Positions 6,019-63,756 of a DNA stretch of 64,000 nucleotides are shown here, piece by piece. Source of the DNA: a virus. The notes under the pieces are model-generated. The model was not told the DNA's origin. It was given only the letters and a program-made list of their open reading frames with translations, and ran no database searches. The stretch's first letter is position 1. The number at the start of each line of letters is the position of its first letter. A program made the translations under genes and the position numbers. The stretch lies in IMG/VR virus record IMGVR_UViG_3300028833_000003. The stretch is one strand, 5' to 3'.

Positions 6019-6019
6019 G

Positions 6020-6682: not shown

Positions 6683-6686
6683 TTCA

Positions 6687-6719: not shown

Positions 6720-6720
6720 T

Positions 6721-6796: not shown

Positions 6797-6799
6797 TAT

Positions 6800-6967: not shown

Positions 6968-6995
6968 TTTTAAATAATCAATAGGAGGCCATTCT

Positions 6996-7205
6996 ATGAG
7001 TTTTAAAGACGCCTATAAAGCCATGCGTGAAGGTAAAGCTATTTCTAATACTGAGCATCCTGATGATCAGTGGGTTTGGAAGAATGACTAGATGATTTTC
7101 CAAAGTGGTGATGGCATTAGCTATCCGGTTAATGATATGCTATCTATTGAATATCTCCTCGATTAGATTGTACAAGATATTTGGTTTGTTGTAGAAGAAG
7201 AATAA
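6996..7205 (+). CDS. Small DUF2829-like protein (two in-frame TAGs: 7089, 7164)
   Basis: ATG lies 8 nt after AGGAGG. MSFKDAYKAMREGKAI...W...DIWFVV recalls the DUF2829 pattern (F..A...m..GK...W ... D.W). The family assignment is from memory only. Confidence 0.5.
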
Positions 7206-7217
7206 ACTTCTTCTTAT

Positions 7218-7292
7218 GTGGAGTGTCGTCTAATGGTAAGACAGCAGATTGTGGCTCTGCGAACGCAGGTTCGATTCCTGTCATTCCACCCA
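7218..7292 (+). tRNA. tRNA-His(GTG)
   Basis: G-1 opposite C73, acceptor TGGAGTG/CATTCCA, anticodon arm GCAGA-TTGTGGC-TCTGC, CCA encoded. Confidence 0.9.
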
Positions 7293-7365
7293 GCTAGCGG
7301 TGAGGGCAATTGACGAATGGGGCTAGCGGAATCCGCACGCGACGTCGGTAAAAAAGCTCCTATAT

Positions 7366-7440
7366 GCGCTGAACCCTCGTCGGTCGGGGAGAGGTCTGCA
7401 AAACCTCTGTTAGTGGGTTCAACTCCCACTCAGCGCTCCA
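7366..7440 (+). tRNA. tRNA-Cys(GCA)
   Basis: Acceptor GCGCTGA/TCAGCGC, anticodon arm GAGGT-CTGCAAA-ACCTC, T arm GTGGG-TTCAACT-CCCAC, U73, CCA encoded. Confidence 0.9.
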
Positions 7441-7456
7441 ATTAAAGAGGGGAGCG

Positions 7457-8140
7457 ATGCATATGTTATTAAGAAAAGGAATGCGTGGAGAATCGGTTCG
7501 ATAGTTACAAACACGTTTAACTGAATTAGGTTTCCTCAATAGTAAGATTGATGGAGTATTTGGTCCAGTAACTTAGAACGCAGTTATGAATTTTCAAATG
7601 CAAGCAAATTTAGGAGTTGATGGTATTGTTGGTCCAAAAACAGAAGCAGCATTAAATGATGTGAATGCGCCGCATTATGTTATACCAACTTCAACTGCGG
7701 TTCCTGCTACTGGCACTGCGCAAATGATGGATTGGTGGAAAAGTGATATTTCTAAAATCTTTGCGCGTGGTGTAGTGGCAACTATTACAGATGTAGATAC
7801 TGGCTTAGCTTGGCACGAAGTACGTAAAGGCGGCTCTAACCACGCTGACGTTCAACCATGTACTGCCGCAGATACTGCTGTATTGAAATAGGCTTATGGT
7901 GGAAAATGGTCATGGGCTAGACGCGCAATTTTTGTAACGATCAATGGTGTTAATTATGCCGCATCAATGAATGGGATGCCACACAGCGGACAATCTATTT
8001 TAGATAATAATTTCCCTGGACATCATTGTATCCACTTTACTAATAGCCGCACACATAATACAAATAAAGTGTGTCCAGACCATCGTAAAGCTATTGAAAA
8101 AGCAGCAAAAGCAAATTTAGGTGATAATTCGGTGGGTTAA
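7457..8140 (+). CDS. Peptidoglycan-binding (PG_binding_1-like) protein with an uncharacterised C-terminal domain (three in-frame TAGs: 7502, 7574, 7889)
   Basis: G..V.-TAG-LQ..L..LGF....DG.FG..T-TAG-.AV..FQ....L..DG.VG..T matches the PG_binding_1 repeat pattern. The frame is open from ATG 7457 to TAA 8138 only if TAG is sense. Confidence 0.75.
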
Positions 8141-8153
8141 TTAACCCACTTTA
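8132..8153 (+). terminator. Palindromic hairpin overlapping the stop codon
   Basis: GTGGGTTAA/TTAACCCAC followed by TTTAT. Confidence 0.45.
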
Positions 8154-8154
8154 T

Positions 8155-8229
8155 AGGGGAATGGTGTAATTGGCAGCATGTCGGTCTCCAAAACCGCTGG
8201 TCTAGGTTCGAGTCCTAGTTCCCCTGCCA
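8155..8229 (+). tRNA. tRNA-Trp(CCA)
   Basis: Acceptor AGGGGAA/TTCCCCT, anticodon loop CTCCAAA, T arm CTAGG-TTCGAGT-CCTAG, G73, CCA encoded. Confidence 0.9.
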
Positions 8230-8233
8230 TTAT

Positions 8234-8308
8234 GCGGGTATAGTTCAACGGATAGAATAACAGACTTCTAATCTGTACATCAGGGTTCAATTCCCTGTAC
8301 CCGTACCA
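8234..8308 (+). tRNA. tRNA-Arg(TCT)
   Basis: Acceptor GCGGGTA/TACCCGT, anticodon arm ACAGA-CTTCTAA-TCTGT, T arm CAGGG-TTCAATT-CCCTG, A73, CCA encoded. Confidence 0.9.
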
Positions 8309-8309
8309 G

Positions 8310-8338
8310 TTGATTTTTTTAAAAATTTTTGATATAAT
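8310..8338 (+). promoter_or_regulatory. Promoter cassette (TTGATT-N17-TGaTATAAT)
   Basis: -35 at 8310-8315 and -10 at 8333-8338. Class B leader ATATATGTAAGATAAAGAAAGG. Confidence 0.75.
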
Positions 8339-8375
8339 ATATATGTAAGATAAAGAAAGGAAGGGCAAACAGTAA

Positions 8376-8714
8376 ATGAAAATTACTCTGTTTGTGGATG
8401 ATGAACGCAGACCTCACAGAGAAGATGCGCATAGTTGGATACTTGTTAGAACTGGTAAGCTTGCAATTGATTTACTTGATGCTCTTCGTAAAATTAATTC
8501 TAAGAATGTTTTTGATATATATCTTGACCATGACCTTGGCTCTGGCATAAGCGGTTATGATGTAGCAAAATATATTGTAGATAACAATATCACAGAAGTG
8601 CAACATGTATATGTAATAAGTATGAATCCAGTTGGTGCGCAGAATATTTGTGATTTGCTTAATCATTACGGTTGGTCGGCAAAGCGAGTGGGGCTAGATG
8701 TTATTGGATTATAA
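8376..8714 (+). CDS. Receiver-like domain protein resembling the cyclic-phosphate-processing REC (cREC) domain of RNA-repair systems
   Basis: MKITLFVDDERRP...WILVRT...AIDLL......IYLDHDLG...SGYDVAKYIV......VYVISMNPVG..NI matches the remembered cREC pattern. No TAG. It runs directly into the suppressor tRNA. Confidence 0.55.
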   Translation: MKITLFVDDERRPHREDAHSWILVRTGKLAIDLLDALRKINSKNVFDIYLDHDLGSGISGYDVAKYIVDNNITEVQHVYVISMNPVGAQNICDLLNHYGWSAKRVGLDVIGL

Positions 8715-8807
8715 AGCCCCTTAGTTCAACGGTAGAACACCGGTCTCTAAAACCGTTATATCCCTCTGAAGGAGGTAGTCTGGGTTCGAATCCCAGAGGG
8801 GCCGCCA
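8715..8807 (+). tRNA. Amber-suppressor tRNA, anticodon CUA, with a long (23-nt) variable region
   Basis: Acceptor AGCCCCT/AGGGGCC (A1-C72 mismatch, then 6 bp), U8, D arm GTTC-AACGGTA-GAAC, anticodon stem CGGT/ACCG with loop CTCTAAA, variable region 8757-8779 with a CCTC/GAGG stem, T arm CTGGG-TTCGAAT-CCCAG, G73, CCA encoded. Confidence 0.8.
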
Positions 8808-8811
8808 ATCA

Positions 8812-8921
8812 TCGACACGTACAGCAAATATAAAGAGTAATCTTTATGTCATGGGTTCAACTCCCATCCTGCACACAGTGCATGTAGCTTAGTTGGTAGA
8901 GCGAAAGAATATAAGTGTCGA
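8812..8921 (+). ncRNA. Circularly permuted tRNA-like module (YrlA/Y-RNA-like candidate 2)
   Basis: Order of elements: closing helix TCGACAC (8812-8818) with GTGTCGA (8915-8921); hairpin ATAAAGA-GTAA-TCTTTAT; T arm ATGGG-TTCAACT-CCCAT (8851-8867); capped acceptor CCTGCAC (8868-8874), loop ACA, GTGCATG (8878-8884); TA; D arm GCTT-AGTTGGTA-GAGC (8887-8902). AAAGA (8904-8908) is complementary to TCTTT (8841-8845). Confidence 0.55.
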
Positions 8922-8932
8922 GTAAATTTTTA

Positions 8933-9025
8933 TAGACAGCATACTGCAATGAAATATTGGATAATATAACAGTTTTTATGCAACTATTATTAGAAGGTTC
9001 AAGTCCTTCGCTTATGCGCTGTCTA
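8933..9025 (+). ncRNA. Second structured module: bulged closing helix plus an orphan T arm
   Basis: TAGACAGCATA (8933-8943) pairs with TATGC-GC-GCTGTCTA (9013-9025) with a 2-nt bulge. T arm GAAGG-TTCAAGT-CCTTC lies at 8993-9009. There is an internal ATAATA/TATTAT hairpin. No D arm or anticodon arm is present. Confidence 0.4.
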
Positions 9026-9123
9026 GAATTTTATTAGGACATAATTAATCAACGCATTGTCCTTAAAATTGAATAAATATTAGGGTGTACATACCTAAAA
9101 TTTCCATGGAAAGGACGATGCTT

Positions 9124-9579
9124 ATGGCAGCTACAATTTTATTTACCAAGCCTGAAACTCAAGAGCTTGCTAATATATACCAAGAGTATGCGTTGCAAAA
9201 TGCTGAATTGGTAGCTAAGAAAGAACTTGCGTTGATTGGCATAGCCATTAACAATGCTGCGGCGAAAGGCGCCACTAGCATTAATTACAAGGCTTCAAAA
9301 GACTTTACTACTTTACAGGGTACTTATTATAATAAGGCTGTAGAGATTATGAACGCAGATTTCCAAAATGCTGGTTATTCTGCTGAAGCAACCACTGACC
9401 GCAATGGTTATGCAATTGCATTCTCTTTTGATTGGTCTGTAATTGATGGCGATGTTCCTGGTGGTAATACTAATCCATCTGCACCAGCAGCAGAGGAAAA
9501 TTGGGAAGAAATTCCTGATCCAGCCCCAGCAGACCCAGCAGAAGGAGAGCCAACCGAAACTCCAACAGATGGCGAGTAA
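9124..9579 (+). CDS. Hypothetical protein with a Pro/Glu/Ala-rich acidic tail
   Basis: Track ORF 9085..9579. In-frame ATGs lie at 9106, 9118 and 9124, and 9124 has the best spacing from GGAAAGGA. TAA stop. Confidence 0.55.
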   Translation: MAATILFTKPETQELANIYQEYALQNAELVAKKELALIGIAINNAAAKGATSINYKASKDFTTLQGTYYNKAVEIMNADFQNAGYSAEATTDRNGYAIAFSFDWSVIDGDVPGGNTNPSAPAAEENWEEIPDPAPADPAEGEPTETPTDGE

Positions 9580-9686
9580 TTGATTGATTAATGATAGGCT
9601 CCAACAGCAAGACAAGAAACACATTCATTTTTAACAAGAAAACGATAGGTGCTATAGGGAGCCTAGATTTTTATGAGGTATAAATA

Positions 9687-9839
9687 ATGATAACAGTAAG
9701 TTAGATTTTTGTTTTTCTTTTAATGTTTGATGCAGCCTGGGTATTCTATGGACTGCTACATAAAAAAAATATGTGGAAATGGATTTGTCTTTATTGGATA
9801 CTCCTCACATTAAAAAATGCAAGTGATCTAATTTTTTGA
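9687..9839 (+). CDS. Small single-pass membrane protein (one in-frame TAG at 9702)
   Basis: ATG lies 8 nt after GAGG. MITVS-TAG-IFVFLLMFDAAWVFYGLLHKKNMWKW... Ends in TGA at 9837. Confidence 0.35.
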
Positions 9840-9852
9840 GGAGATGAAAAAG

Positions 9853-10098
9853 ATGTATTCAAGAGCACACATTAGATGTAATGGCCCACAGGAAACTGCG
9901 CAATTAGTAAGTTTATTAAATACTGATGGTACAACCAATAAGTATATCTTAGAAACGGCAGATAGTGCTTATCGTGTAAATGCAAGAAGTTTCTTAGGTG
10001 CGGTATATTTTACTACTGAGCATGCTGATGATACTTGGTTAGTAAATACTGATAATGATGGTTGGTATCCTATTGGTATTGATAACTTCCGTATCTAA
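9853..10098 (+). CDS. Hypothetical protein (weak HPr-like resemblance, catalytic His absent)
   Basis: Track ORF 9844..10098. The second ATG (9853) lies 9 nt after GAGGAG. ...RVNARSFLGAVYF recalls the HPr ...KS.mg.m.L segment. Confidence 0.55.
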   Translation: MYSRAHIRCNGPQETAQLVSLLNTDGTTNKYILETADSAYRVNARSFLGAVYFTTEHADDTWLVNTDNDGWYPIGIDNFRI

Positions 10099-10121
10099 TT
10101 GGGACAAAATAGTCCCCATAA

Positions 10122-10198
10122 TGGGGTGTAGCCAAGTTGGCCAAGGCATGGGACTTTGACTCCCACATTCGCAGGTTCGAGTCCTGCCACCCCAGCCA
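10122..10198 (+). tRNA. tRNA-Gln(TTG)
   Basis: Acceptor TGGGGTG/CACCCCA (U1-A72), anticodon arm TGGGA-CTTTGAC-TCCCA, T arm GCAGG-TTCGAGT-CCTGC, G73, CCA encoded. Confidence 0.9.
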
Positions 10199-10202
10199 AT
10201 AT

Positions 10203-10277
10203 GCCGTCGTGGCTCAATGGTAGAGCAGCTGATTTGTAATCAGCAGGTTGTAGGTTCGACTCCTATCGGCGGCTCCA
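10203..10277 (+). tRNA. tRNA-Thr(TGT)
   Basis: Acceptor GCCGTCG/CGGCGGC, anticodon arm GCTGA-TTTGTAA-TCAGC, T arm GTAGG-TTCGACT-CCTAT, U73, CCA encoded. Confidence 0.85.
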
Positions 10278-10541
10278 AGAGAGCATACTCTTAACCAATG
10301 TCGATTGCAGGTGGTATCGTTAAATCCACCCCAGGCGGACCAGAGGATAATGCAGACGTGCAAAAATGCCCCAAACCCAGTGCGGTTTGTCAGTCGTCAC
10401 AATCGGGACAAGCTGGTCTAAAGATGGAAAGCCGGCTCATTACAGCAATGTTAGCCAGAGTAGTATAAAAGGCAAGTACAGCGCAGATGACAATGCGAAG
10501 ATTTCGGTTCGACTCCGAACTAAAAATCCATCTTGAAATAT
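10278..10541 (+). ncRNA. Candidate structured non-coding RNA (~260 nt) between tRNA-Thr and tRNA-Ser
   Basis: No ORF. Helices: AAGAG/CTCTT, GGTGG-TATCGTTAAAT-CCACC, GACCAG (10339-10344) with CTGGTC (10413-10418), TTGTC/GACAA, AGATGGA (10422-10428) with TCCATCT (10526-10532), and a T-arm-like TTCGG-TTCGACT-CCGAA. Confidence 0.4.
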
Positions 10542-10630
10542 GGGCGTGTGGCCGAGAGGCTGAAGGCTATGGTCCTGAAAACCATCGTGGTGATGAGCCA
10601 CCGTAGGTTCGAATCCTACCGCGCTCGCCA
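10542..10630 (+). tRNA. tRNA-Ser(TGA) with non-canonical C33
   Basis: Type II tRNA. Acceptor GGGCGTG/CGCGCTC, anticodon arm ATGGT-CCTGAAA-ACCAT (perfect stem; the loop has C at position 33), long variable arm, T arm GTAGG-TTCGAAT-CCTAC, G73, CCA encoded. Confidence 0.8.
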
Positions 10631-13046: not shown

Positions 13047-13607
13047 ATGAAAGCATATCTCGCTGGTAGTATTTTTTATCTTGGCGATAAATTTAGAAAT
13101 GAATACTTCTCTTAGAAATTGCGCGAGGCTTTCCCAGATTTAGATTTATATAATCCATTAGAAAATACTGCGATTAATGATAAAACTAAATTTGCCGATG
13201 CGAGAGCTATTGCTGATGGAGACAATGAACGTTTAAACAATAGTGATATTCTAATTGCTTGTATTGATGGAGATGTATTACCAAGTGGCACATGTTCAGA
13301 AATTGGAAAATTCCATGAAAAAATTGCACGCGGCGACCATAAGTTACTTGTGGGAATTTGTACTGATACACGTCAGCAATATCTCACTCATAGTGCAGAA
13401 AAAGATAGCACATACAACGAACCCGGTGAGTGCCAATATTGTTATGAAAATCTATATGTTACTGGACTCATTAAGCAAGCGGGCACTTTGGTAACAAATA
13501 TTGAAGATGCTATTAAAGCTATTTCTATTTGGTTAGATCAAAAGGATATAAAAGCTTTTATTAATGATTATCATACATTTTGGGAGGAAGGGTCTGAATG
13601 GCGGTAA
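13047..13607 (+). CDS. Nucleoside 2-deoxyribosyltransferase-like protein (one in-frame TAG at 13113)
   Basis: MKAYLAGSIF...D...ACIDG......GTCSEIG follows the deoxyribosyltransferase-fold pattern. It is in frame with track ORF 13119. Confidence 0.6.
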
Positions 13608-14884
13608 ATTATTCTTTACGAGAAAAACCTCGTAATTGGAAAGACGCAATTGGTTATACTCTATAGTTTGTATTTGCGGTCCTAACCGCAACTATTTTAA
13701 TCGCAACTATCTGCGGAACCAGCATCGCGGCAGGTCTCGTCGCAGCAGGTATCGGCACATTAACTTTTTTGTGTATCACAGGTTTTAAAGCGCCAATAGT
13801 GATTAGTAATAGCGGCGCTACGGTATCTGCGGTAGTAGGTGCATTAGCTCTATCTAGTGCAGTTGAAACTAATTTCGCTGGTGTTATTTTAGGTGGCGCG
13901 GTAATCGCAGTTATTTATGGAGCAGCAGCATTGGCAATTAAGAAATGGGGCATTCAATGGTTACAGAAGCTAATTCCGCCACTAATTTCGGGGACAACCA
14001 TATTAGTAATCGGTATTACATTGGCTGCATTTATTCCGACATACGCACTTGTGGGTGGCAGCTATTCGTTATGGGGCATCCTTATTGCGGGGATTACAGC
14101 AATAACCACAGTTCTGTGTATGCATTATGGGAAGAGCTTAGTCAAGACAATGCCTTTCTTAATTGGTTTGCTAGTAGGGTACATTGTCAGTTTTGTCCTA
14201 ACTTTAACAAATGTTGCTCCATTAGTCAACATGGACGCATTGAAGATTTCAAGTGTCTTTACTGTTCCCCAATTTGCCTTCTTGCAAACGAACTTCAATA
14301 CTTTCGATTGGTCAGCTCTACCGCAAATCATTCTCTCATTTGGAATGGTAGCACTTGCGGCAATGACTGAGCACATTGGAGATATGACGACTGCTTCTGC
14401 TGTAACTGGATATAATCTATTAGAAACTCCTGGTTTGCATCGCACATTACTTGGTGATGGCGTAGGTAGTTTAATGGGTACTATTGTTGGCGGATAGCCC
14501 AATACCACTTATAGTGAATATACTTCTACAATGGCAATTAGCGGAGTTTATAGCACTTGGTACACATTATATACTGCTATTGTTTTAATCGCACTTGGTT
14601 TTATTGCACCATTTAATGCTTTCTTAATGGCATTACCTAATGCGGTATTTGCTGGTGTATCAATAGTAGCATATGGTATGATTGCTCTTGCTGGTTTGCG
14701 CACTATTGTAAATGCAAATATTGATTTTAGCAATAGTAAAAATCAAATTATATTTGCGGCAATGGTAACAACCGGATTGAGTGGTTTAGCAATTACATAT
14801 GGAGCATTTAATTTAACAGGCATTGCGCTTGCAATGATTGTCGGTGTGCTATTGAATGTAATTTTAAAAAATAAGGGAGAGTAA
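13598..14884 (+). CDS. NCS2-family nucleobase (uracil/xanthine-type) permease (two in-frame TAGs: 13664, 14495)
   Basis: About 12 hydrophobic segments. Motifs include ...PNTTY.E......A..GVYS.W and TEHIGD. Track ORFs 13769 and 14531 are in one frame with ATG 13598, which follows GGGAGGAAGGG. TAG 13664 falls at the family Q of the QH motif. Confidence 0.85.
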
Positions 14885-47647: not shown

Positions 47648-49885
47648 ATGGGTTTAGAAATTATAAAACGTAATGGTAATTTAGTTCCTTTTGATAAACA
47701 GCGTATTATTGATGCAATTAATAAAGCATTTATTGAAGTCGATGGAAAACTATTTGAAACTGACACTTCACGTAGTATCGCTGATGATGTAGAAAAATAT
47801 GTTGCAATGTAGGGCGAACCAATTCACGTTGAAGCAATTCAAAATATGATTGAGTTCTACCTTATGCAAAGCGAACGTAGAGACGTTGCTAAGGCTTATA
47901 TTCGTTATAGATATAAAAGAGAAATTGCACGTTCATATAACGCAGAGTTTATTGAAGAGATTGGTAAGAAATTACAAGCAAAAAATATTGAAAATCAGAA
48001 CGCGAATGTAGATGAACATTCATTTGGTGGCAGAAAAGGTGAAGCTACAAATTTGTTGATGAAACAGTATGCGCTTGACTTTCTTATTAGTCCTCGTCAC
48101 GCATATAATCACTTGCATAATCGTATCTATATCCACGATTTAGATGCCTATGCAGTTGGTATGCACAACTGTTTATCAATTCCTTTTGATGATTTGCTTG
48201 CGAAAGGCTTTAATACGCGACAAACTGATATTCGTCCTGCAAACAGTATTAATACTGCTTTCCAACTTGTCGCTGTTATATTCCAGTTACAGAGCTTACA
48301 ACAGTTCGGTGGCGTCTCAGCAACTCATTTAGATTGGACAATGGTTCCATATGTTCAAAAGTCATTTGCTAAACATTTTAAAAAGGGCTTGCGCTGGACT
48401 GAAAAAGCGCCTGCCGATTATATTGAAAATGTTCCTGATATGATACCTATTGAGTCACCTATCGCGCAGGACTGGGTTAATGCTTATAAATATGCTATGG
48501 CTATGACAGAGCAAGAATTAAAGCAAGCCGTAGAAGGTATGTATCATAATCTCAATACTTTACAGTCACGCAGTGGCAATCAGTTACCTTTCACTTCTAT
48601 TAATTACGGCACATGCACGCTTCCAGAAGGCCGTTTGGTTATTGAAGCATTATTGAATGGTTCTATTGATGGTGTAGGTAAATTACATCGTACTCCTATT
48701 TTCCCTTGCGGTATTTTCCAAATGATGAAGGGTGTTAATAGAACACCTCGTGACCCAAATTATGATTTATATAGATTAGCATTGCAATCAACAGCAAAAC
48801 GTTTATATCCTAACTATGCTAATGTTGATTGGAGCGGCAATGCCGGTTATGACCCAGCTGATCCAAAAACTTATTTCAGCACTATGGGTTGCCGCACTAG
48901 TAATGGTTTAGATATAAATGCAGAACCTGGTACTAATCCTCAGACCAAAGATGGCCGTGGGAATATCTGCCCAGTAACTATCATTCTCCCTACTATTGCT
49001 ATGGAAGCAAAAGCAGCGTATAAAGATGATAACATTACTAATGATACGATTATTGATTATTTTATGAGATTTTTAGGCAGCGCCATTGAAGATGCAAGAG
49101 ATTGTTTATTAGAACGTTTTGACTATATTTGTTCGCAATCTCCTGAATCTGCCAAATTTATGTATGAAAATGGCACAATGCTCGGGTATCATCCAGAAGA
49201 AGGCATCCGTTCTGCTTTAAAACATGGTACAATTGTTATTGGTCAGCTCGGTTTGGCAGAGTGCTTGGAAATTTTAATTGGTAAAAACCAGACTACCGAT
49301 GAAGGTATGGCTTTGGCCAAACAAATAGAACAATTATTTAAAGAGCGTTGTGCAGAGTATAAGCAACAGTATAAATTAAATTTTGGTGTTTATTATACCC
49401 CTGCTGAGAATCTTTGCTATACTGCTATGAAATATTTCAAACAACAGTATGGTGAAATTAAAAATGTATCTGACCATGAATATTTTACCAATAGCATCCA
49501 TGTACCAGTATGGGAGCATGTTGGTGTGCTTGATAAAATTGAAATTGAAAGTCAATTAACTGGTTATAGTAATGCAGGTTGTATCACTTACGTAGAACTT
49601 GATAGCGGCATTGCTAATAACTTAGACGCTTTGGATTAGATTGTCCAGTTTGCTATGGACAAAGATATTCCATATCTTGCTATTAATGTTCCTAATGACA
49701 CTTGTTTAGAGTGTGGTTATACTGGTGAATTTAATGATAAATGCCCGATGTGTGGCAGCACGCATTTACAGCAATTGCGGCGTGTTACTGGTTATTTAAC
49801 TGGCGATTATAAAACCGCATTTAACTGGGGCAAACAAAAAGAAACAGAAGCAAGAGTAAAACACGTTAATGAATTAAAGGAGTGA
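47648..49885 (+). CDS. nrdD: Anaerobic ribonucleoside-triphosphate reductase NrdD (two in-frame TAGs: 47810, 49637)
   Basis: N-terminal ATP-cone (IIKRNGNLVPFDKQRI). The C-terminal Zn ribbon and glycyl-radical segment (CLECGY...CPMCGS...RRVTGYL) are in frame only through TAG 49637. Track ORFs 47846 and 49655 share the frame. Confidence 0.9.
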
Positions 49886-53764: not shown

Positions 53765-55183
53765 TCAAGCGGTCGCTGTTGTCGCTTTCGCTAATTTTTG
53801 GAGCGCTGCTACTAATTCTTTTGCTTCTATCTCACTTGAACACGCCACCTTTACATACCAAGATTTTGGTGTATCAGGTGTGGTAGGTTCAACAGGCACA
53901 GATACAGGAATTAAAAATTCATTCATCATATATCCGGTCTGTCCGTTATACATAATGCGGTCCCATTCAGTGCCATGATCAATAATATCAACAATAGTCC
54001 CAGTTGATATTTTTGCTATTACACCAAAATTAGTGCCCGCGCCAGAACGCATACGCACTGTCGTGCCGCTTTTTGATTTTACTGTTGCCTAGTATAACAC
54101 TGATAAAACCTCCCCTTCTGATGTACCAGCATTTGCTAGTTCTTCTGGTGTATATAAACCCGCGGGGATTGCATAGTGCGTCCAGCCATATGTACCTAAT
54201 TCTTGACGTTTAACGCCAGACTTGCTACCAGCTGCATGCATAAAAGTGCCATCGCCCAGATAAACACCAGTATGTGACATTGGATTAGATGTTGGTGATT
54301 CATGATATAAAGCACAAATCTTATCTTTTGGCATCTAATCAATTGGTCCTTTTCGCACCCAGATACTTGATTTCCATTGTGAAGATGCGCCAGATACTAA
54401 GGAAATACCAATTTGCGCGAAGCATAACTTCGTAAATCCTTGGCAATCATAAACCTACTTACCGAGCCACTTCTTTACAATGTTATAATCAACTTTGTCT
54501 GGATATTGAGCAATACGCGCACGAATAAATTGTTCGGTTGCAATTTGTCCTTGAGCACCATAGATATAACCACAACCTTCTTTACTTAACGCATACTCTC
54601 TGATTACTTTCTCTTTCTCCTATGAGGTCATTACTTCAAATACCTCCTTTACTACTGCACCAGGATAATAAAATTGTAAAATATCCTAATATGTAAAGCC
54701 CATATTTGCCATCTTCTTTGCGCCAACTTGGCTCATACCAACACAATGTCCATTGCGCGCAGTAGTTGTATAGGGGTCATCTTTACTAACTAGCCAAGCG
54801 CGTTCTCCACCCCAGACTTCTTTAGAGCTTTTTATATGTCCGCCATTGCTAGAAGAGAAAGGCACTGGGCTACATAAAGTGTTTTTATATGTTAAAACTA
54901 ATGCATTAGTTGCTTCAACACAACGATAAGTAGCAGCATAAGCATTATCAATTGATCTCGAATATCGATATGCCTAATGCTTAGCGCTATTATCTGTCAT
55001 ATTTTTAATAGTATAAGCATTAGTTCGTGCGGCAATTGCTTGGGCTTTTACAGCTTCATCCGGCCCATTCATTTCACTAGGAACACAACCTAGCAAATAT
55101 GTTTCTGGATGAATATTGATCGTGTCATTAACATTAACGCCCCAAGCTTCCGCATTACTTTCTCTTGTTAAAGTTAATCTCAT
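53765..55183 (-). CDS. Three-domain endolysin: SpoIID-like, NlpC/P60 and SH3 (six in-frame TAGs; plus-strand 'cta' at 54974, 54686, 54620, 54455, 54335, 54089)
   Basis: LLGCVPSEM..P.EAVKAQAIAARTNA and GHCVGMSQVGA...ILQFYYPG are SpoIID-like. YDCQGF ... HTGVYLGDGTFMHA is NlpC/P60. TVRMRSGAGTNFGVI...G..V......W.RI...G.TGYM is SH3. There is no TAA or TGA between the domains. ATG 55183 lies 7 nt after GGAGA and overlaps the upstream TAA. Confidence 0.8.
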
Positions 55184-56343
55184 TATAATTTCTCCAATAA
55201 AAGCGCCCATTGCGCATGTGTTATGGGGGTTTCAACTTCATCTATATTATCTGGGATTTCATAATTTTCATTACGCCCTTGCAATTGATGCATTAATATA
55301 TCGTAATGGTTCTACGTAATTGGAATGTCATAATCCCAATCCAAAGTGTTAATAGCTGGCATAATGGCTGCCATTTGCGCACTTTCTTGTGTTAATCTAT
55401 TAACATGGCCGATAAACTAACGACATAATGTATATGCAGTCATTAAGTCATCAATCTAAAACATAGTTTCATTCTCATCTTCTAATGTATCAATAAAAAC
55501 AAAAGAAGCGCTTCGATAGAATTCATTTGATGTATCTAATGAACAACCTGCTGAACCAACTATTTTAGAGTCTAAAACTGCACATACTTTAACATATAAT
55601 GAAGGTGTTGTGTTAATTTCATTATAGTTTTTTGTACCAAGAAACGATGTTAAAGGAACAATCATAGATGTCTAATTTGTACGTTCCGTATCAATCCAAC
55701 CTAAAGAAACTAATTCTCCACTGTTTGGAGTTAATAATGTTTTATCATTAGGCCCAGCAAATACACCCACAGAATAATGATCAATTGTACCAGTAAAATT
55801 TTCTGGTGGAGACCAGCGCACCGCTACACGATTATAATACTAAGGCCATACTTCTATTTCTACTGGCGCTGGAATAGAAGTATCAATAGTTAAACTACGA
55901 TAGTAAATACGTACATCTACATAACTAATAATAATCGTTCCATTAATTGCGTAAGGCCAAAATGTAATCTAAAAAGTTTGGCTTGTCTTATTAGTCAAAC
56001 CTGTTATTTCATATTCATAACTGCCAAACGTTGAACCATTAATATTGCGAACTGGAAACTCTGAACTTTCTAAATAGTTAGTCCCGAAACCAACTCGTCC
56101 TTTACAATTCATTTCATAGTTAAAATCAATAACAGCTTTTGTAATTTCAACTCCGCCAGGAGGAGGATTACGTAATGTACAATTAATAGAAATAGTAGTG
56201 CCGCAGAATTGTAATTCTTCAACTGCTGCGGCCTGTGGAACATGTATATAAGTCGCCGGAGTTTCGGCGCACTATGAACTACTTTTAATTGGTTGCCCAG
56301 ATGCTATGGGATAATATGTATATTTACAATTTACATTCGCCAT
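55183..56343 (-). CDS. Structural protein with an FN3-like segment (seven in-frame TAGs)
   Basis: One frame is open from ATG 56343 to TAA 55183-55185. 'cta' at 56272, 55969, 55840, 55672, 55456, 55417 and 55312. VAVRWSPPENFTGTIDHYSV is FN3-like. Confidence 0.55.
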
Positions 56344-56718: not shown

Positions 56719-57702
56719 TTATAAATTACCAAATAATAGTATATAACTATCATCTATTGTATTTATATCAGTAGCGCTCGCCCAGCACCATACTGACATA
56801 ATCGCATTAAATAACATATCTTTATTTGTCTATGTTATCTAATTATCTTTAAGTAATTGGCCTACTCTTTTATCAAAATTTGACCGTAAAATTTTTTCAT
56901 CATAACCATCTTTATTTTTTCGCATCTAACAATCCCATAATTTTCCATCACAATCAATAGTGAATGAATCAATGCCTGCCATACAATGCGGAGTTTGTTT
57001 AGGTACTTCTATGGTTCCAAACCATTTATAATAATTCTCTGCATCATAACCGAAATAACGACCAGGCACTTCAATGGTCGGCTTTGCACCGATATCATCA
57101 ATATTAATATATGGTCTTTTTTCTACTAAAGGTATCATTTTATCATGTAATTCCTACGCCCATGCATACCAAACTGTAGAGTCGGTGCGCAAATTAATTT
57201 TAGTTAATGTCGATTTAGTAGATATTTTTAACTAAAAATTATTGGTCGGCATTTTCGTTGGGCAAGAATAAATTAAATGCTCTAGCGCGCGGATTGAATT
57301 TTTATACGCACCTTTCTAACGATTAAAATCATTCATATCTTCTGGACCATCAATATTAAATTGGATATGTAATGTTACATCATATGATAATAATGGCATG
57401 ACGAAATAACGGTATAATTCTGATGTACCGTTTGTAGAAAACATAATATTTTTGATTTGCGGCCATCGCTTTAAAATTGCAGTAATCATTGCTGAAAAAT
57501 ATGGTCCATTAAGTGATGGCTCCATTCCCCATAATCCAATACTGGTAGTTTCTGGGGTGATAGTTTCAAGAATGGTTTTTGTAAATGAACCATTCTTGAA
57601 ACACTCCTAAATGCGTTTATTATCATGCTCTTGATATTGCATACAACAATAAGCACATTTTAAATTACATGCATCGGAAAAATAAATGTTAAGATTTTTC
57701 AT
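56719..57702 (-). CDS. Radical-SAM enzyme with a Twitch/partial-SPASM C-terminal motif (seven in-frame TAGs)
   Basis: N-terminal CNLKCAYC (Cx3Cx2C) at residues 12-19. HCMAGIDSFTIDCDGKLWDC equals C-x12-G-x4-C. Track ORFs 57316 and 56926 share the frame with ATG 57702. 'cta' at 57607, 57316, 57232, 57154, 56926, 56839 and 56830. TAA at 56719. Confidence 0.75.
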
Positions 57703-57795: not shown

Positions 57796-60700
57796 TTATT
57801 TCACCTTAATCCATATTCTATTATTTACAGGAACTGCCTTTTCACCCCAAATTGTGTATTCAGGTACTTCACTAACATAGCCTATAATACAATCAGGATA
57901 CTAAACAATCTCTTCTCTTGTCATAATATCTATCGTACCATTAGGAGCAGCACATACTGCCATACCAGCGTGATAATTTGTTCTATCTTGATATGTATAT
58001 ACTAGAACACGACCAGCAACAGCCACTGGTGTTTTAGCCGTTTCAGTTTCACCTTGCGCAAAACCATAGGTATCAGATACAATAGAAGCGCCTGGTATTA
58101 GACGTTCTTCTGTACGAGTCATAATACCATTGTCATTTTCTTGTACGCAACGTCCAGCTTCTAATTCTGTCGTGCAACGATATTCCGCATAGTCATTCCA
58201 AGCAGCGCCCATTAAAACGCCAGCAGATAAATCAGAATAAATTGCACTACTGCCCAAATATAAACATGCTTTACTACTAGCATTAGCACGCCAAATTATA
58301 GCATCTGTAGTTGGATTTGCAGAAGGACCTGTAAAAACTAATTGTTTTCCTCTTCCAACTGTTATATTTTCAGTTGATGTAATACCAGCTGCCGTTAAAG
58401 CACCTGCAGATGATATATATGCACCTGCTGAAGCACATGGTACAATATTAGTTTGCTCTGCACTACCGCTTGGTGTGGTAGGCGTACCCAATAAATACGC
58501 TGTCCAAGTTGGTGATGTGGCAACTTTAACATTAACAAATTTATCAGTAGTAGTTATCTATGCCCATGTTGGCTCACCACTACCATTTGATTTTAAATAA
58601 TAGTTCTTAGTACCAGCACTAGTAGGAGCGTAGAAACTAGCTGATGTAGTTGCTGTACCATTTAATGTGACAGTACTTCCATCGCCCCATTCAGGCACAC
58701 TAGCACCCATTTTTAAGAATTTACCAGCCGCACCTTTACCTAAACGTGTTGGTGTATTAGCAGCAGACCAATAAATTATATCACCTGCGTGAGTACCAAT
58801 AGATTTAGGAATTGCATAGTCAGAAAAATTTAACTAATCTAATACATTAACCCAACCGCCATTAGTAGTGCTATTTTGAAGAGCACCACCTGCTACGCGT
58901 TTATAATAAATACCATTTGCATTAAATGGAATTGCGAGGTCAGTATAATAACCAGAATTATTTGCATGATTACATCTAATAATATGAGTCCAAGTAGCAC
59001 TAGAAAATGGAGTATCATTTACTTTAACTGCTCCCTATCTAGCAGCACTAATATTGAAATATTGTAAGCCATTCCAACCATAGTCCATACGTGTATTGCT
59101 ACTTAATTGCGTTGATGTAGTTGCAGTTGTAGCATTACCAGACAAAGTACCAGTAATTGTGTATCCACCAGTAATTGTTTTAGCATATGGATCAATAACT
59201 AATGCAGTACCGACACCAGTTTTTGTCGTTCCATCAGCAGATGCAATACCAAAAATACGGAAATTACTATTTAAATTATCTAAAACAATACCCGCTTTTG
59301 TTGTTGCATTTGCGGCAGCACATAAATGAAGTTCTCCACCTTCGCCAGAGCCATCTGGTTTAATATCTATAGTACCATTGAAATAGCTTGGTCCAGCAAC
59401 AGTTAAGTTATATGATGAATTAAAGTTACTATTAACAGCCAATCGAGAAGTAGCTTTAATACCATTGGTTCTAAAAGCGGCGCCTCTACTTTCAGATGTT
59501 ATAAGTCCAATAGTAAAATCAAATAATGAATCTGCTGAAGTATTATATCTGTCACCAATAAAATATGCTTTTTGGCTACCATCATTAAAAATTAATTTTG
59601 GGCCACCTAATGATTCATTATAAGCCGCTGTTGCACCTGTATCTGATCCAGAGACAGTTCCAGTTATCATAACATTGCCATTAAATGTAGTACCAAGTGT
59701 ATTATAGTCTATTGATATTGCATTTTTTGAATATGTAGTTTGCGCAGATGTAGTATAATTAGTATTAAACTATAATAAACCAGATGTATTCAAAATCTAC
59801 CAAGACGCACTAGAATTACGATAAAACTCAAGACCTACGGCAGCTGTTCCAGCACCTTTTAAAACTAATTTACCAGTTTGCGTAGTAGTAGATGAATTAT
59901 CTGCACCATCAATTAATAAACCAGTGGTTGTTGCAGTAATGCGCGCGCTATAATCAGCAGTGCTAGTATTTGTTGCGTGGAAATCAATATATTTACCAAT
60001 TTCCATTACACCATCAGAGCCAATTAATGGCGTACCTCTAAAATAAGCACCAGCTGCTGGGGCTAAATTAGATCTATAATTACTTAAACCAAGAATGGTC
60101 GCTCCGTTGGTTTCATCTAAAATGCGGCGCCAAGATTGCCAAGTGCCATTATTTTTACCGCGCACACTTAACTGTCCAGTTCGATAATCCTAAAAAATTT
60201 CTGTTATCCAAGAATTATTATACCACTGTGAAATTAATGCACCATCTGTCTATTGATAATTCCAAGCAGCTTTAGTCAAGCCAGATACATAGCCTAGTGC
60301 ATTAGTGCCAGGGCCATTACCATCAATACCAAGATTTGTGCTTGTGGTAACTTTAAAATTAGTTAAATTAGATGCGGTGGTAGAAGTATCAGAACTATTA
60401 GCATGATTAACTGTGCCACCATCTACTGCAACAGTTACATCATCATATGCAATCGCTCCAATACTTGTAGTAACATCAGGATAAACTTCAATAGATGTTT
60501 TTTTATCATCCGCTGTTGTATTATTTACTTCCGTACTTGCAAGCAATGTCCATGCATAATTAGCACCTTCTAATAAGTATGCATATGCACGCATATAAGT
60601 ACCACATTTTACATACACATCACATTGCGCAGATTGACCAGAAGCACCTTTACGAGCAATTCTAACATCACCAACTGCAAAACCATAACGCACTATCCAA

Positions 60701-63700
60701 GTAGCGCTTACTGAAGTTGCTGCTGGCGGGTCTGCACTAGCATTATTAGCACGAGCAGAAATTTTAATAACGCCGTATTTACCACCAGAGTATCGAGAAT
60801 GTATAAATAAAATTGCATCTCTATCAACATATGAACCAGTTCCTAAATTAGTAGTAGCTACACGATGCCAAGGATAATGATTAGTATTACCAGAATTAAC
60901 AGTAACATAATTATGATACCAAGTTAATGCTGTTGGAGTACCATTATTAAGATAAATACCTCTACACTCACTGCCAACTGTTGTTGTACCTAATTTAGAT
61001 GCTGCACCAGTCAAATTACCAACAAAACCATTAGTTGCAGTTACGCTGCCTGGGAAAGTGCTATTACCACTAGTATCAAATAATTTAATTTCTTTAGCAA
61101 CTATATTAGAAGTATTGTAACGTCTAACTACAATCTATTCGTTATTACCATCATCGCCAACAGCAATTTCTAATAAACCAGCATTCGCGGTTTCTTCTAA
61201 ATGACGAATCCAACCAGCATCATTATTTCCATTACCATTTAATGGGTCAGCAAATGCAATAGCGTTACTATAAATAAATACACCACGCTTATTACTATTA
61301 TAAGGTAGTTTATCTGGCATACCAGATGTAAGAGCCATACGAATATGGTTTCCTCCCGCTGCGGAACCACCTTGTACCCACAACCCACCTGTCTAAATCG
61401 TTGTTGCACCATTGATAAATAAAACACTACCATCTGTTTGTTCTGCGTGCTAACCAATTGTTAATTTAGGTACTGATATACGCACACCAGTTGCAAGCGT
61501 AGTTCCAGTTGGAGCATGCAAACGTATATTACCTTCTGAATTATAAGACTTAGCATTGTCAGTAACACCAATGTAACAATAGCTTAAACTATTTGCAGAA
61601 CCAAAATTACCAAAATTACTTAAAATAGATGTTTTATCATTTTTATAAGCATCAAATACTGTCCAAGCCCAACCGCCACCGCCATCTTTAACACGAGAAC
61701 TAAAAAATTGACTAGTATTTTCTGAGCCATAAAACTAAGATGTACCTAAAGTTTTATAAGTTTCGCTTAAATCCCCAACATATGATGCGGCAATAGCAGA
61801 ACCGTGCCAAGTACCAGCAGTAATAGTACCAACTTTTGTAATTTCAGTTAAATTTTTTTCTGTTATAATTCTATAATTCTTATTAGCAGTCAAACCAGTA
61901 GCAACTGTTGGTAAATAATATGTTTCATAATAACCGGTAGTAGTAGTCGTAGCAGGATTATTAGGACTATATTGACGCCAATTCCATATGCCTGTTGTTA
62001 CATTAGTTGCATCACCTACATCATACCAGGTTTCAGCTACTCTATTAAGAGCATTATTTCGTAATACTATATCTTTGATATAACGAGAAGTCGAACCCCA
62101 ATAACCATATCCACGTACATCTAGTACATAGTTACCAACTAACGGTGCCATAGTAGTAATAGCATTATCTTGATTAATTGTAAATAAAGCATTTGATTTA
62201 GTTGAGCCATGATTATGCAACCAAATGCCTCGATTACCAGTATCTGTCCCAGCACTATATAAATAAATGTCACCAGCATTGCTTTGTGCTTTTACATTAA
62301 TTTCTTTGCCTGATGTTGTTCTACCAGCAACAATATGAGAATTAGTATGTATTTGTTTTGTTACGCCTAAACCGCCACCAATACGAACTGCCCCGTTATT
62401 ATAGTCAGTAGCATCTTGAGTATATTGTATATTGACTATATTACCCGCTGTGGCATCACCATAGCCCATAATAATCGGGCCACCGTTTATATTTAAATAT
62501 AGTCCTTGTTCTGATTCATTAACTTCAGTTCCACGATTACCATCTGAATCACAACCAGAAATTCCACGGACAATTAAAGCATTTGAACCAGCAGAACCAA
62601 TAATATGCACACTGCCAGTTAAATACGATGCCGCGCCAGTGGCAATACCACCACCAACTACTAATGCGCCAGTTGTAGAAGAAGTTGATGCCGTAGTGGC
62701 TTTAATTTTTACTGTACCCGCTTTATTAATTGTTAATAATCCATTATTACCATAAAGCCCTAATCCAACTGCATTTTCTGCATTGTTAGAACCATAATAA
62801 TGGAACTCAAGTACTGCCTAATTATTAGAACCATTACTCACACCTGTCATTAAGCATGTGTTACCACCGCTAGCTAAATTAGGAACTAAATGATTAATAC
62901 CCCAAGAATAAGTACCACTTTTCACCACAGTTGCTGGCGCGTTTGAGGTTAAATTAATCATACCTTTTGCGGCACTATCTGTGGCATTTGGATTATATTC
63001 TACTGTAGTTTGACCAGTGAATAACGCTCCGCCATTTTCATAAAAACGAATTTGTGCATCTGTTCTTGCAGTTGTACCATTATAAGTTGTATCTTTAACA
63101 TAACTAAATAATAAATCATCTGTATATGAAGAATCTGTATAGGAACCAATTTCCCAAGATCCATTACTAGTTTTTGTTGATACTACTGGTGAATAACCAG
63201 GAATTGAAGTTATTGCAATCAAAGCATTATCTCTGCCTTTATGCCAAGAAGATGCAATACCAGCTCTTGTAATAATATGACTTGTAATAAATTTAGAACC
63301 ATCCCAAGTTAAAGAACCACCTGATAACTTATTCGTTTGATTATAGGTAGTAAATAGTAATCGAGTATTACCATTTAAACCCTAAATTGCTAATGTCCCC
63401 GCGCTATTGACGTCACCCATTTGGGCATCATCACCGACTTTATTCCATGTGTTATTAGCGAAATTCAATGCGCCGGTCATAGTCCCGCCAGCCAATGGTA
63501 AATATTTATTAACTCCTAATGCGGTAATCATATTGGCCTTACTAACCCAGTAAGTTTTGCCACCATTTGCAAATGAATCAATCGCAAGAAAAAATTCTGC
63601 GGCGCTACCTTTTTCTGGTAATGCTACATTATCTTTCCAGCTTAATGGCGCGGTCATCTAACCGCCTTCTATAATTTGCGGTTTAAGAGTAGTAGTATAG

Positions 63701-63756
63701 AGCGTATCAGTTACTCTGGCGCTCCCTTGTATCAATGTATCTTTTAATTGTGCCAA
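57796..63756 (-). CDS. Giant tail fibre (1,986 codons, 15 in-frame TAGs)
   Basis: TTG start lies 7 nt after AAGGAGG (MAQLKDTLIQGSARVTDTLY...). Eight track ORFs (63382, 62818, 61735, 61135, 60250, 59797, 59035, 57901) share one frame and are separated only by TAG. Composition is Gly/Ser/Thr/Asn-rich with repeated G.AGKFL...P.W-type motifs. TAA at 57796. Confidence 0.75.

Follow-up and report, generated by a model that had tools for sequence, protein, structure and literature searches.

A tRNA-Trp-like phage tRNA(CUA) with a conserved extra arm as a probable glutamine-inserting amber suppressor

The tRNA(CUA) gene, its family and its body

The DNA analyzed here, a 64,000-nucleotide stretch of the IMG/VR virus record IMGVR_UViG_3300028833_000003 (the window), contains 25 tRNA genes by ARAGORN, one of which, at 8715-8807 on the plus strand, has the anticodon cta at its position 33. 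This amber-suppressor gene, referred to below as tRNA(CUA), is the only CUA tRNA in a window that has about 50 in-frame TAG codons. Its elements are as follows.

8715..8807, plus strand: amber-suppressor tRNA(CUA), 93 nucleotides (nt), CCA encoded (ARAGORN; Rfam tRNA model, 55.8 bits; family model R1, 110.4 bits)
8740..8756, plus strand: anticodon arm CCGGT-CTCTAAA-ACCGT, the core of which, CGGTCTC[T]AAAACCG, matches tRNA-Trp
8747..8749, plus strand: anticodon CTA within the loop CTCTAAA at 8745-8751 (sequence, ARAGORN and Rfam alignment)
8757..8779, plus strand: 23-nt variable region, with stem CCTC (8763-8766) paired to GAGG (8772-8775) and loop TGAAG (8767-8771) (sequence and fold)

The 5' part of the gene reads AGCCCCT TA GTTC AACGGTA GAAC A CCGGT CTCTAAA ACCGT and the 3' part [TATATC CCTC TGAAG GAGG TAGT] CTGGG TTCGAAT CCCAG AGGGGCC G CCA, with the variable region in brackets. 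The Rfam tRNA model RF00005 matched 8715-8804 with 55.8 bits, where the gathering score is 29 (E=2.5e-9 over the 64-kb window). The match is full-length (model positions 1-71) with all conserved bases present; the alignment sets CUA in an ordinary loop of 7 nt, CUCUAAA, and assigns a 20-nt insertion to the variable region. Stems of 7, 4, 5 and 5 base pairs (bp), a 7-nt anticodon loop with U33, G18G19 and the T-loop TTCGAAT are those of an elongator tRNA. At the acceptor end, an A1·C72 mismatch is followed by G2-C71 and C3-G70, and the discriminator is G73. The single-sequence minimum-free-energy fold does not form a cloverleaf (z = -1.58), as is common for tRNAs. We conclude that 8715-8807 is a real, intact phage tRNA with anticodon CUA. 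A first-pass annotation of this DNA had listed the CTCTAAA loop, A1·C72, G73, the encoded CCA, the 23-nt region and its 4-bp CCTC/GAGG stem, all of which were recovered from the sequence, ARAGORN and RF00005; its concern that a covariance model might move the anticodon or score a pseudogene is answered by the same alignment, which keeps CUA in its normal loop well above the gathering score. Three points were absent from it: the C27·U43 mismatch, the likeness of the body to tRNA-Trp, and the conservation of the arm across a family.

The variable-arm stem is 4 bp by sequence and 5 bp in the single-sequence fold, and is flanked by 5-6 unpaired bases on its 5' side and 3-4 on its 3' side. The D arm is type I, with a 4-bp stem, a 7-nt loop and a normal GG. 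C27 and U43 are unpaired, so that the anticodon stem is effectively 4 bp, and RNAalifold omits the pair. The ARAGORN label for the gene, 'Pyl', reflects the CUA anticodon only. In tRNA-Pyl the variable loop has 3 nt, the anticodon stem is elongated, and the D loop is small and lacks G18G19; that assignment was rejected on the 23-nt variable region, the effectively 4-bp anticodon stem and the normal D loop with GG. Allo-tRNAs, in which the 12-bp acceptor branch divides 8/4 or 9/3 (PMC5389517), were likewise set aside, the split between acceptor and T stems being the standard 7/5 and backed by covariation. The anticodon loop is uninterrupted, and the window gene is not an intron-containing tRNA.

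An exact-pattern scan of IMG/VR for the anticodon arm gave 74 loci, 43 of which carry a CUA tRNA with a long variable region; about 39 of those 43 (about 30 distinct sequences) share the arm of the window tRNA. The tRNA of one locus (L068) is identical to tRNA(CUA) and that of another (L046) differs by one base, and the flanks of neither have DNA similarity of at least 150 nt with the window. Two scans with the arm only, without the anticodon in the query, found CUA in every tRNA whose anticodon region was fetched; one further locus (L080) ended 5' of the arm, and the two remaining matches were non-tRNA ribosome-binding sites. A single pass over 185,579 species genomes from bacteria and archaea returned two real matches, both of them phage-like tRNA arrays in contigs of metagenome-assembled genomes, and a bacterial origin of the family was rejected on this result. 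In a BLAST search of GenBank phages, Phass-1 was the sole true relative; matches to Streptomyces phages covered only the T-arm region of tRNA-Ser and were discarded. The family of arm-bearing CUA tRNAs appears restricted to phages. In the comparison with suppressor tRNAs of other recoded phages that had been proposed at first pass, at least 30 distinct sequences on viral contigs, one of them from Phass-1, share this build.

The family was represented by covariance model R1 and alignment A3 (31 sequences, 30 distinct), and tRNA(CUA) is the top match to R1 in the window, with 110.4 bits. All five helices are supported across the family, with 93% of cells pairing and compensatory changes in 18 of 25 pairs, and every shuffle and slide control scored below the family alignment. 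RNAalifold on the 31 relatives recovered the cloverleaf and, independently, the variable-arm hairpin. In the hairpin 95% of cells pair across the 30 distinct relatives, and at two of its four pairs both strands vary in a compensatory way (U-A, C-G and U·G at one; C-G, U-A and U·G at the other). Covariation links position 15 with the base just before the T stem on its 5' side (A-U in 26 members, G-C in 2). Because this 15:48 Levitt pair covaries around the insert, the insert between positions 45 and 48 is a true variable arm, and the intron that had been considered in its place is excluded by the covariation of both the pair and the hairpin.

Several positions are constant or nearly so. The anticodon is CUA in all members, C27·U43 is unpaired in 30/30, G10-C25 is invariant, and G73 is found in 28/29. 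Position 1:72 is U-A in 9 members, A-U in 6, a wobble in 2 and a mismatch in 12, and is G-C in 0/30; C3-G70 is present in 22/30, including the window tRNA. The arm loop is UGAAG in 22/30 members, the GGU after the loop is invariant, and the stem is Y-rich on one side and R-rich on the other. Judged from these alignments and scans, the 23-nt arm is a conserved, CUA-specific and phage-specific addition.

In some relatives a group I intron of 175-190 nt separates U35 from A36 (L079, 468-659; L082, 5573-5747; also L077 and L081), with an Rfam Intron_gpI match of 50.5 bits in L079. Up to position 72 the exons of L082 match the window tRNA exactly, and the exons of the intron-bearing relatives keep the variable arm. 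In these relatives splicing would precede suppression as an extra step.

Such introns, together with the single-sequence fold that lacks a cloverleaf, could be cited for tRNA(CUA) being a non-functional relic or a splicing-dependent gene, its insert an intron or scar and the real suppressor located elsewhere. We regard this as scarcely credible. On the general tRNA model the gene reaches 55.8 bits and lacks none of the conserved bases, the insert lies between positions 45 and 48 where 15:48 covaries, and the hairpin is compensated in 30 distinct sequences. The introns of the relatives lie at another place, between U35 and A36, in exons that keep the arm, and tRNA(CUA) is the sole CUA tRNA for about 50 in-frame TAG codons.

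Two other tRNAs of the window bear on the origin of the body.

8155..8229, plus strand: phage tRNA-Trp(CCA), with A1-U72, G73 and the anticodon-arm core of tRNA(CUA)
10122..10198, plus strand: canonical type I tRNA-Gln(UUG), with a backbone unrelated to tRNA(CUA)

The first-pass claim that tRNA(CUA) does not derive from the phage's own tRNA-Gln holds: the two share 49 identities in a global alignment, which places tRNA-Gln(UUG) among the least similar of the 24 other window tRNAs, and in the core formed by the D and anticodon arms only 4/36 positions are identical, against 12/36 for the phage tRNA-Ser. Among the features of a canonical tRNA-Gln (U1-A72, G2-C71, G3-C70 and a short variable loop), only G2-C71 is found in tRNA(CUA), which has A1·C72, C3-G70 and 23 nt instead. 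Positions 8-43, in contrast, are 31/36 identical to E. coli tRNATrp, the reference for which was checked in 5,426 E. coli genomes, where it is annotated as tRNA-Trp at 100% identity. The five core differences include G43U, which unpins 27:43, and C35U, which is the change in E. coli su+7 (supU), the trpT allele whose C35-to-U product is an amber suppressor charged mainly with glutamine. Among 356 ARAGORN tRNAs of related viral loci, tRNA-Trp(CCA) was the best non-CUA isotype (maximum scores: Trp 25, Gln 16, Ser 15, Tyr 10), and the phage tRNA-Trp at 8155-8226 was the second-best window match to family model R1, with 44.7 bits. We infer from these likenesses that tRNA(CUA) took its D arm and anticodon arm, by common descent, from a bacterial tRNA-Trp in which C35 became U. 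Ancestry in tRNA-Trp would account for G73 and for the weak 1:72 of tRNA(CUA).

At window position 8738 (tRNA position 24), tRNA(CUA) has U11-A24 where E. coli tRNATrp has U11·G24. A24 is the same state as in the Hirsh UGA-suppressor mutation; it may be incidental here, the 11:24 pair being always Watson-Crick but variable across the family.

The amino acid at TAG and the charging of tRNA(CUA)

Reading through TAG raised the summed length of open reading frames (ORFs) of at least 100 amino acids from 57.0 to 80.7 kb and joined fragments into a 1986-residue fibre, a 481-residue lysin and others. The TAG-containing genes are the following.

13598..14884, plus strand: uracil-permease-like protein, 2 in-frame TAG
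47648..49885, plus strand: anaerobic ribonucleotide reductase NrdD, 2 in-frame TAG
53765..55210, minus strand: SpoIID/NlpC-P60/SH3 lysin, 481 amino acids, 6 in-frame TAG
55183..56343, minus strand: late protein, 386 amino acids, 7 in-frame TAG
56719..57702, minus strand: radical-SAM-like protein, 327 amino acids, 7 in-frame TAG
57796..63756, minus strand: tail-fibre-like protein, 1986 amino acids, 15 in-frame TAG
An unnamed protein, 380 amino acids, 5 in-frame TAG

The replication genes, which lie between 14987 and 47000, are free of TAG. TAG is a sense codon in this phage, and the combination of a CUA tRNA with in-frame TAG in otherwise intact genes is that of a code-15 suppressor system. Across the arm-bearing loci, which are mostly tRNA arrays and TAG-free early genes, the gain in ORF length was alike for TAG-sense and TGA-sense reading (medians 2728 and 2736 nt).

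In the lysin, the first TAG takes the place of the Gln that is invariant in the SpoIID motif (D..xQxY/F), as seen against about 35 distant bacterial SpoIID/LytB proteins, and it corresponds to Gln in the B. anthracis SpoIID structure 4rwr as well; it is also aligned to Gln in 66 close homologues. In the permease, the first TAG lines up with Gln in the QH motif that E. coli UraA carries. At the codon level, the closest comparisons (L086, 98% amino acid identity; L087 lysin, 84%) have as partners of TAG another TAG in 12 cases, CAG in 3, CAA in 2, GAA in 1 and TTA in 1. Over all relatives, the non-TAG partners of window TAG codons are Gln codons in 12/38 cases, Glu codons in 3, Ser codons in 2, Tyr codons in 1 and Trp codons in 0. 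Codon use differs between the two classes of genes: five recoded genes have 65 CAA, 4 CAG and 40 TAG, and twelve TAG-free genes have 140 CAA, 101 CAG and 0 TAG. TAG has in effect taken the place of CAG in the recoded genes, CAG to TAG being one C-to-T transition. With TAG counted as Gln, the Gln content of the recoded genes rises from 1.9% to 3.1%, compared with 3.7% in the early genes. The radical-SAM-like protein gave only weak matches to the Protein Data Bank (PDB), too weak for its TAG positions to be placed. The independent evidence for Gln consists of the distant bacterial and PDB homologues and the codon-level comparison, and on it TAG is almost certainly read as glutamine in this phage.

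The first-pass annotation had held that the charging identity is ambiguous from the structure of the tRNA alone, Gln-like or Ser-like, and as a statement about structure this stands. The ambiguity is resolved to Gln by the SpoIID and UraA Gln positions, the CAG/CAA interchange and the loss of CAG. A Ser-inserting suppressor, in which SerRS would take the long arm and G73, ignore the anticodon and make TAG serine, would draw on the 23-nt variable region with its hairpin, on the presence of G73, and on the existence of tRNA-Ser-like CUA tRNAs on other viral contigs such as L018. It is nonetheless highly unlikely. Bacterial tRNA-Ser conserves G1-C72 (PMC9976931), which is found in 0/30 family members, 12/30 being mismatched; the D arm is type I; the core has 12/36 identities to the phage tRNA-Ser compared with 31/36 to tRNA-Trp; and the 4-5-bp variable stem follows 5-6 unpaired bases rather than starting right after position 45. 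Ser codons stand opposite TAG in 2/38 comparisons and never at a conserved column, and the CAG deficit of the recoded genes is filled by TAG.

Bacterial tRNA-Tyr is also long-armed and one change, GUA to CUA, would turn it into an amber suppressor. The long variable region, the retained U35 and A36 and the lack of a tRNA-Tyr among the 25 window tRNAs would fit a Tyr-inserting suppressor, which we consider extremely unlikely: bacterial tRNA-Tyr needs A73 and G1-C72 (PMC9976931) where tRNA(CUA) has G73 and A·C, the core is least Tyr-like (maximum score 10, compared with 25 for Trp), and TAT or TAC stands opposite TAG in 1/38 comparisons.

The tRNA-Trp-like core raises the question of whether TrpRS still charges the molecule by its Trp-like body, A1 and G73. 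Trp identity depends in part on G73 and the first base pair (PMC9976931), and in PMC10879173 isotype models gave 'Trp' for 19% of 180 phage suppressor tRNAs. C34 and C35 are, however, the major TrpRS determinants, and C35 is lost; TGG stands opposite window TAG in 0/38 comparisons; the conserved columns under TAG are Gln, not Trp; and the classical tRNATrp amber suppressor takes Gln (PMC9976931). Insertion of Trp is therefore very unlikely.

The determinants read by GlnRS are U35, 1:72, 3:70, 10:25 and the discriminator base; the tRNATrp amber suppressor receives Gln; and an amber tRNA-Ser, with its long arm, becomes a Gln acceptor after changes at 1:72 and 3:70 (PMC9976931). Under these identity rules the family signature fits Gln and is contrary to Ser and Tyr. 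Taken together, the data indicate that tRNA(CUA) is probably a functional tRNA-Trp-type amber suppressor that is charged by the host, inserts Gln at UAG and serves the TAG-containing genes in a standard-code host. The tRNA would be transcribed in the tRNA-array region, possibly together with the cREC gene immediately upstream (described below), and released by RNase P directly after the stop codon of that ORF. Host GlnRS would charge it, reading U35, G73 and the easily opened 1:72 pair. The unpaired C27·U43 and the CUCUAAA loop would favour UAG reading in competition with release factor 1 (RF1), and the phage could thereby translate its lysin, tail fibre and other late genes, and a few others, in a standard-code host. 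CUA suppressors in which the top anticodon-stem pair is unpinned read stop codons better, in experiments summarised in PMC13092985, and the 27:43 pair is a hinge next to the D arm and the variable arm (PMC13092985); on the strength of the unpinning results, the invariant C27·U43 is plausibly an efficiency feature.

Several observations weigh against this explanation. In the database, close lysin homologues have Q at most TAG positions, and these proteins are circular as evidence for Gln because they were called with TAG=Q; for homologues P0001-P0003 the DNA does not give the deposited protein under the standard code. The second TAG of NrdD is aligned to Glu in three solved NrdD structures, and several other TAG positions fall in variable columns. 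In the tRNA, the E. coli GlnRS determinant G3-C70 is absent, the window tRNA having C3-G70, and where tRNA-Gln has G36 and U38 it has A36 and A38. Neither its acceptor stem nor its T stem resembles that of any tRNA-Trp examined, and the Trp-like anticodon arm could in part have converged on a context that makes for efficient suppression. The hosts of the nearest GenBank phages are Bacillota, and many Bacillota lack GlnRS and make Gln-tRNA via GluRS and GatCAB; should the host use that route, U1-A72 is available in only 9/30 family members.

The main rival follows from the last of these points. A non-discriminating GluRS acting with GatCAB in a GlnRS-less Bacillota host would give indirect charging, possibly incomplete, and thus a mixture of Glu and Gln at TAG. 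It would accommodate the Bacillota hosts of the nearest phages, the Glu opposite the second NrdD TAG in three structures, the Glu codons among the partners of TAG (3/38) and the rank of Glu as the second most common residue in two lysin TAG columns, and amidotransferases are also sensitive to weak 1:72 pairs (PMC9976931). The tRNA itself is poorly suited to this route, which prefers modified U34 and U1-A72 (PMC9976931): the B. subtilis GluRS mainly needs modified U34 where tRNA(CUA) has C34, GatCAB relies on U1-A72 where the window tRNA has A·C, and the long variable arm is hard to reconcile with it. In addition, the invariant catalytic-motif positions under TAG are Gln. We consider indirect charging unlikely, and direct charging by host GlnRS remains the preferred explanation.

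Class I enzymes, including GlnRS, approach the tRNA with the variable region facing solvent, and the arm should therefore not block GlnRS. Nor is it needed for the acceptor signature, since an armless 72-nt suppressor of Phass-1 has a 1:72 mismatch and G73. Our best guess is that the arm sharpens identity or decoding efficiency at the hinge formed by the D arm, anticodon stem and variable arm; it could also sterically hinder class II enzymes that read U35. A broader and tentative proposal, which we hold to be rather doubtful, is that the arm hairpin, the unpaired 27:43 and the never-G-C 1:72 act together as a dedicated phage suppressor chassis, giving a clean GlnRS substrate, excluding class II enzymes and outcompeting RF1. 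If this proposal is correct, the family would supply the first example in nature of a tRNA that combines acceptance of Gln with a class-II-like extra arm, and would represent a naturally evolved design for amber suppression that is both efficient and specific. More speculatively, the arm may be a handle for a phage or host protein; in roughly half of the family its 3' strand matches the Shine-Dalgarno sequence perfectly (AAGGAGGU). Mimicry of a Shine-Dalgarno sequence (GAAGGAGGU) was judged unlikely to be what the arm mainly does: about half of the members have GGGG, AGGG, CAGG or UGGG, with compensation in the opposite strand.

CUA tRNAs of other kinds were encountered on other viral contigs. 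One (L018, 7321-7407) is a textbook tRNA-Ser-like class II tRNA (GGAGAG..., G1-C72, G73, long arm), like supD, and two (L017, 2835-2918; L034, 3799-3883) are of quite different build. Some phages may read TAG as something other than Gln.

Genomic surroundings

The gene lies in a tRNA array that occupies window positions 1-10630 and whose 25 tRNAs include two tRNA-Trp(CCA) and four tRNA-Leu; no tRNA-Tyr, tRNA-Met or tRNA-Val was called by ARAGORN in the window. The features immediately upstream and those of a gene cluster downstream of the array are listed below.

8310..8338, plus strand: sigma-70-like site TTGATT-17-TATAAT preceded by TG (10/12 matches), a possible promoter of the cREC ORF and tRNA(CUA)
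8376..8714, plus strand: ORF with a cREC_REC domain, 112 amino acids, no TAG (Pfam PF20274, 69 bits)
14987-16516, plus strand: DUF2828/DUF7788 protein
16795-17595, plus strand: RlaP nucleotidyltransferase
18609-20009, plus strand: RNA-ligase-like protein
22211-22789, plus strand: AAA_33 kinase
22785-23387, plus strand: metallophosphoesterase

A tRNA-Arg ends at 8308, upstream of the promoter-like site, and the TAA stop codon of the cREC_REC ORF (8712-8714) directly abuts position 1 of tRNA(CUA). No terminator-like hairpin was found within 8100-9700. The number of sigma-70-like sites is not above shuffle expectation, and 8310-8338 is a consensus match only. The first-pass annotation had reported the cREC neighbour, the lack of a terminator and a promoter at 8310; the first two are borne out, and the third has the standing of a consensus match. 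Co-transcription of tRNA(CUA) with the cREC ORF from 8310-8338 is plausible from this arrangement. Homologues of cREC occur near the equivalent tRNA in only three related loci, with differing gene order. A conserved cREC-tRNA operon unit was rejected on these grounds, and we claim no functional coupling.

The scanned ORFs of the 64-kb window contain no aminoacyl-tRNA synthetase, release factor or amidotransferase domains. The window also encodes gyrase, DNA ligase, DnaB, primase, RecJ, Pol III alpha, NrdD/NrdG and dUTPase. Its Pol III alpha shares about 37% identity with the counterparts in Enterococcus phages, Phass-1 and SPbeta-like phages; these relatives and the SpoIID/NlpC-P60/SH3 lysin point to a Bacillota host.

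Besides the cREC gene, the window codes for a set of RNA-repair-type proteins, clustered at 14987-23390 on the plus strand, downstream of the tRNA array (listed above). Directly 3' of tRNA(CUA), at 8826-8932 on the plus strand, there is a sub-threshold match to YrlA (RF02553; 32.4 bits, gathering score 69), with a T-arm-like GGGTTCAACTCCC and a D-arm-like GTAGCTTAGTTGGTAGAGC in permuted order; a weak tRNA-like match at 8880-9018 overlaps it. Sub-threshold YrlA matches of 31-39 bits were also found in the tRNA arrays of related loci (L046, 4002-4101; L057, 3846-3959; L007, 59-161; L068, 1079-1138). Each match alone is weak, and their recurrence in four related arrays suggests a divergent Y-like RNA. 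DUF2828 proteins are, we presume, Ro/TROVE-like, which would fit a Y-like RNA beside tRNA(CUA).

Theta or HDV-like ribozymes have been reported 3' of many phage suppressor tRNAs; a permissive Rfam scan of 8600-9100 detected none 3' of tRNA(CUA). The tRNA arrays of related phages are rich in ROOL (317.7 bits), cow-rumen-4, cow-rumen-3 and skipping-rope RNAs (L015, 5403-5987; L046, 5788-5855 and 1062-1157; L068, 2912-2981; L077, 7110-7174; L082, 6612-6679), and none of these RNAs was found at threshold in the window itself. Inside the array, an ORF of 179 amino acids at 1481-2020 (plus strand) has one in-frame TAG and no Pfam match. Its protein is 62-93% identical in seven loci with the arm-bearing CUA tRNA and 42% in an eighth, and in two loci the homologue lies a few hundred bases from that tRNA.

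Relation to known suppressors and long-arm tRNAs

The nearest classical counterpart is su+7, which shares with tRNA(CUA) the tRNA-Trp-type D and anticodon arms, CUA in CUCUAAA, A1 and G73, and, by our reading, insertion of Gln. The Trp-like core with C35U, G73 and a weak first pair is of the su+7 type, with common descent inferred. Unlike su+7, tRNA(CUA) is natural, phage-encoded and under selection, and it has A1·C72 rather than A1-U72, C27·U43 rather than C27-G43, unrelated acceptor and T stems, and a 23-nt variable arm in place of the 5-nt loop of tRNATrp.

[quoted passage not shown] It scores 97.1 bits on R1, shares the anticodon arm, C27·U43 and G73 with tRNA(CUA), and likewise forms a hairpin in the variable arm (CCCT/GGGG). 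It differs in being 88 nt long, in its paired A1-U72 and other acceptor stem, and in its position upstream of NrdD. Immediately 5' of the arm-bearing tRNA lies the armless 72-nt Sup-CTA (L075, 5910-5984; OQ749652.1, 62539-62610), with a U1·C72 mismatch, G73 and the CUCUAAA loop; Phass-1 thus has a pair of parallel suppressors that share one acceptor signature. Gln was inferred for Phass-1 from terminase alignments and tRNAscan-SE in PMC10607447, which does not comment on a variable arm or on likeness to tRNA-Trp.

As in other code-15 gut phages, a phage-encoded CUA tRNA accompanies late and lysis genes with in-frame TAG read as Gln, there is no dedicated synthetase, and charging by the host is assumed. 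Suppressor tRNAs of TAG-recoded (code 15) gut phages have reportedly been treated by Peters et al. as well. Recoding of TAG to Gln with phage suppressor tRNAs is established in 10.1101/2021.08.26.457843 (Borges et al.), PMC10607447 and PMC10879173 (Kienbeck et al.), the last of which gives Gln for 69% and Trp for 19% of 180 suppressor tRNAs by isotype models. Term searches of these three papers, and literature searches among open-access papers and preprints, brought up neither a long variable arm nor a 4-bp anticodon stem nor any 1:72 rule for suppressors.

Like class II tRNAs (Ser, Leu and bacterial Tyr), tRNA(CUA) has a stem-loop inserted between positions 45 and 48 and is about 90 nt long in all. 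It is distinguished from them by its type I D arm, its short flanked stem, a 1:72 and 73 signature that fits none of them, and its probable amino acid, Gln. The textbook long-arm tRNAs are those for Leu, Ser, bacterial Tyr and Sec; if charging with Gln is correct, a Gln acceptor would join this list. The engineered supD amber tRNA-Ser variants (cited in PMC9976931) likewise show a long-arm CUA tRNA acting as a GlnRS substrate once 1:72 is weakened, but they are laboratory mutants on a true tRNA-Ser body, whereas tRNA(CUA) has a Trp-type body and a different arm. The unpaired 27:43 on a Trp-type tRNA recalls tRNAs with 4-bp anticodon stems (Blastocrithidia-type tRNATrp; bacterial survey in PMC13092985). 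In contrast to 4-bp-stem tRNAs that promote stop reading, tRNA(CUA) already has a UAG-cognate anticodon and combines a C·U mismatch with a long arm.

Two cautions for annotation follow from these comparisons: isotype models may call such tRNAs 'Trp' or 'Pyl', and database proteins already translated with TAG=Q make naive homology arguments circular. Stop-codon recoding is a known trait of gut and rumen phages. As to how their suppressor tRNAs acquire an amino acid identity and outcompete release factor 1 in hosts with the standard code, the locus points to a concrete answer for one widespread phage group, namely a Trp-derived CUA tRNA with a weak 1:72, G73, an unpaired 27:43 and an arm. If charging with Gln is correct, the family would provide natural templates for efficient amber suppressors and for genetic-code engineering. 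Set against these systems, the code-15 suppressor function is ordinary, and the Trp-like body with its conserved extra hairpin is an unusual chassis for it.

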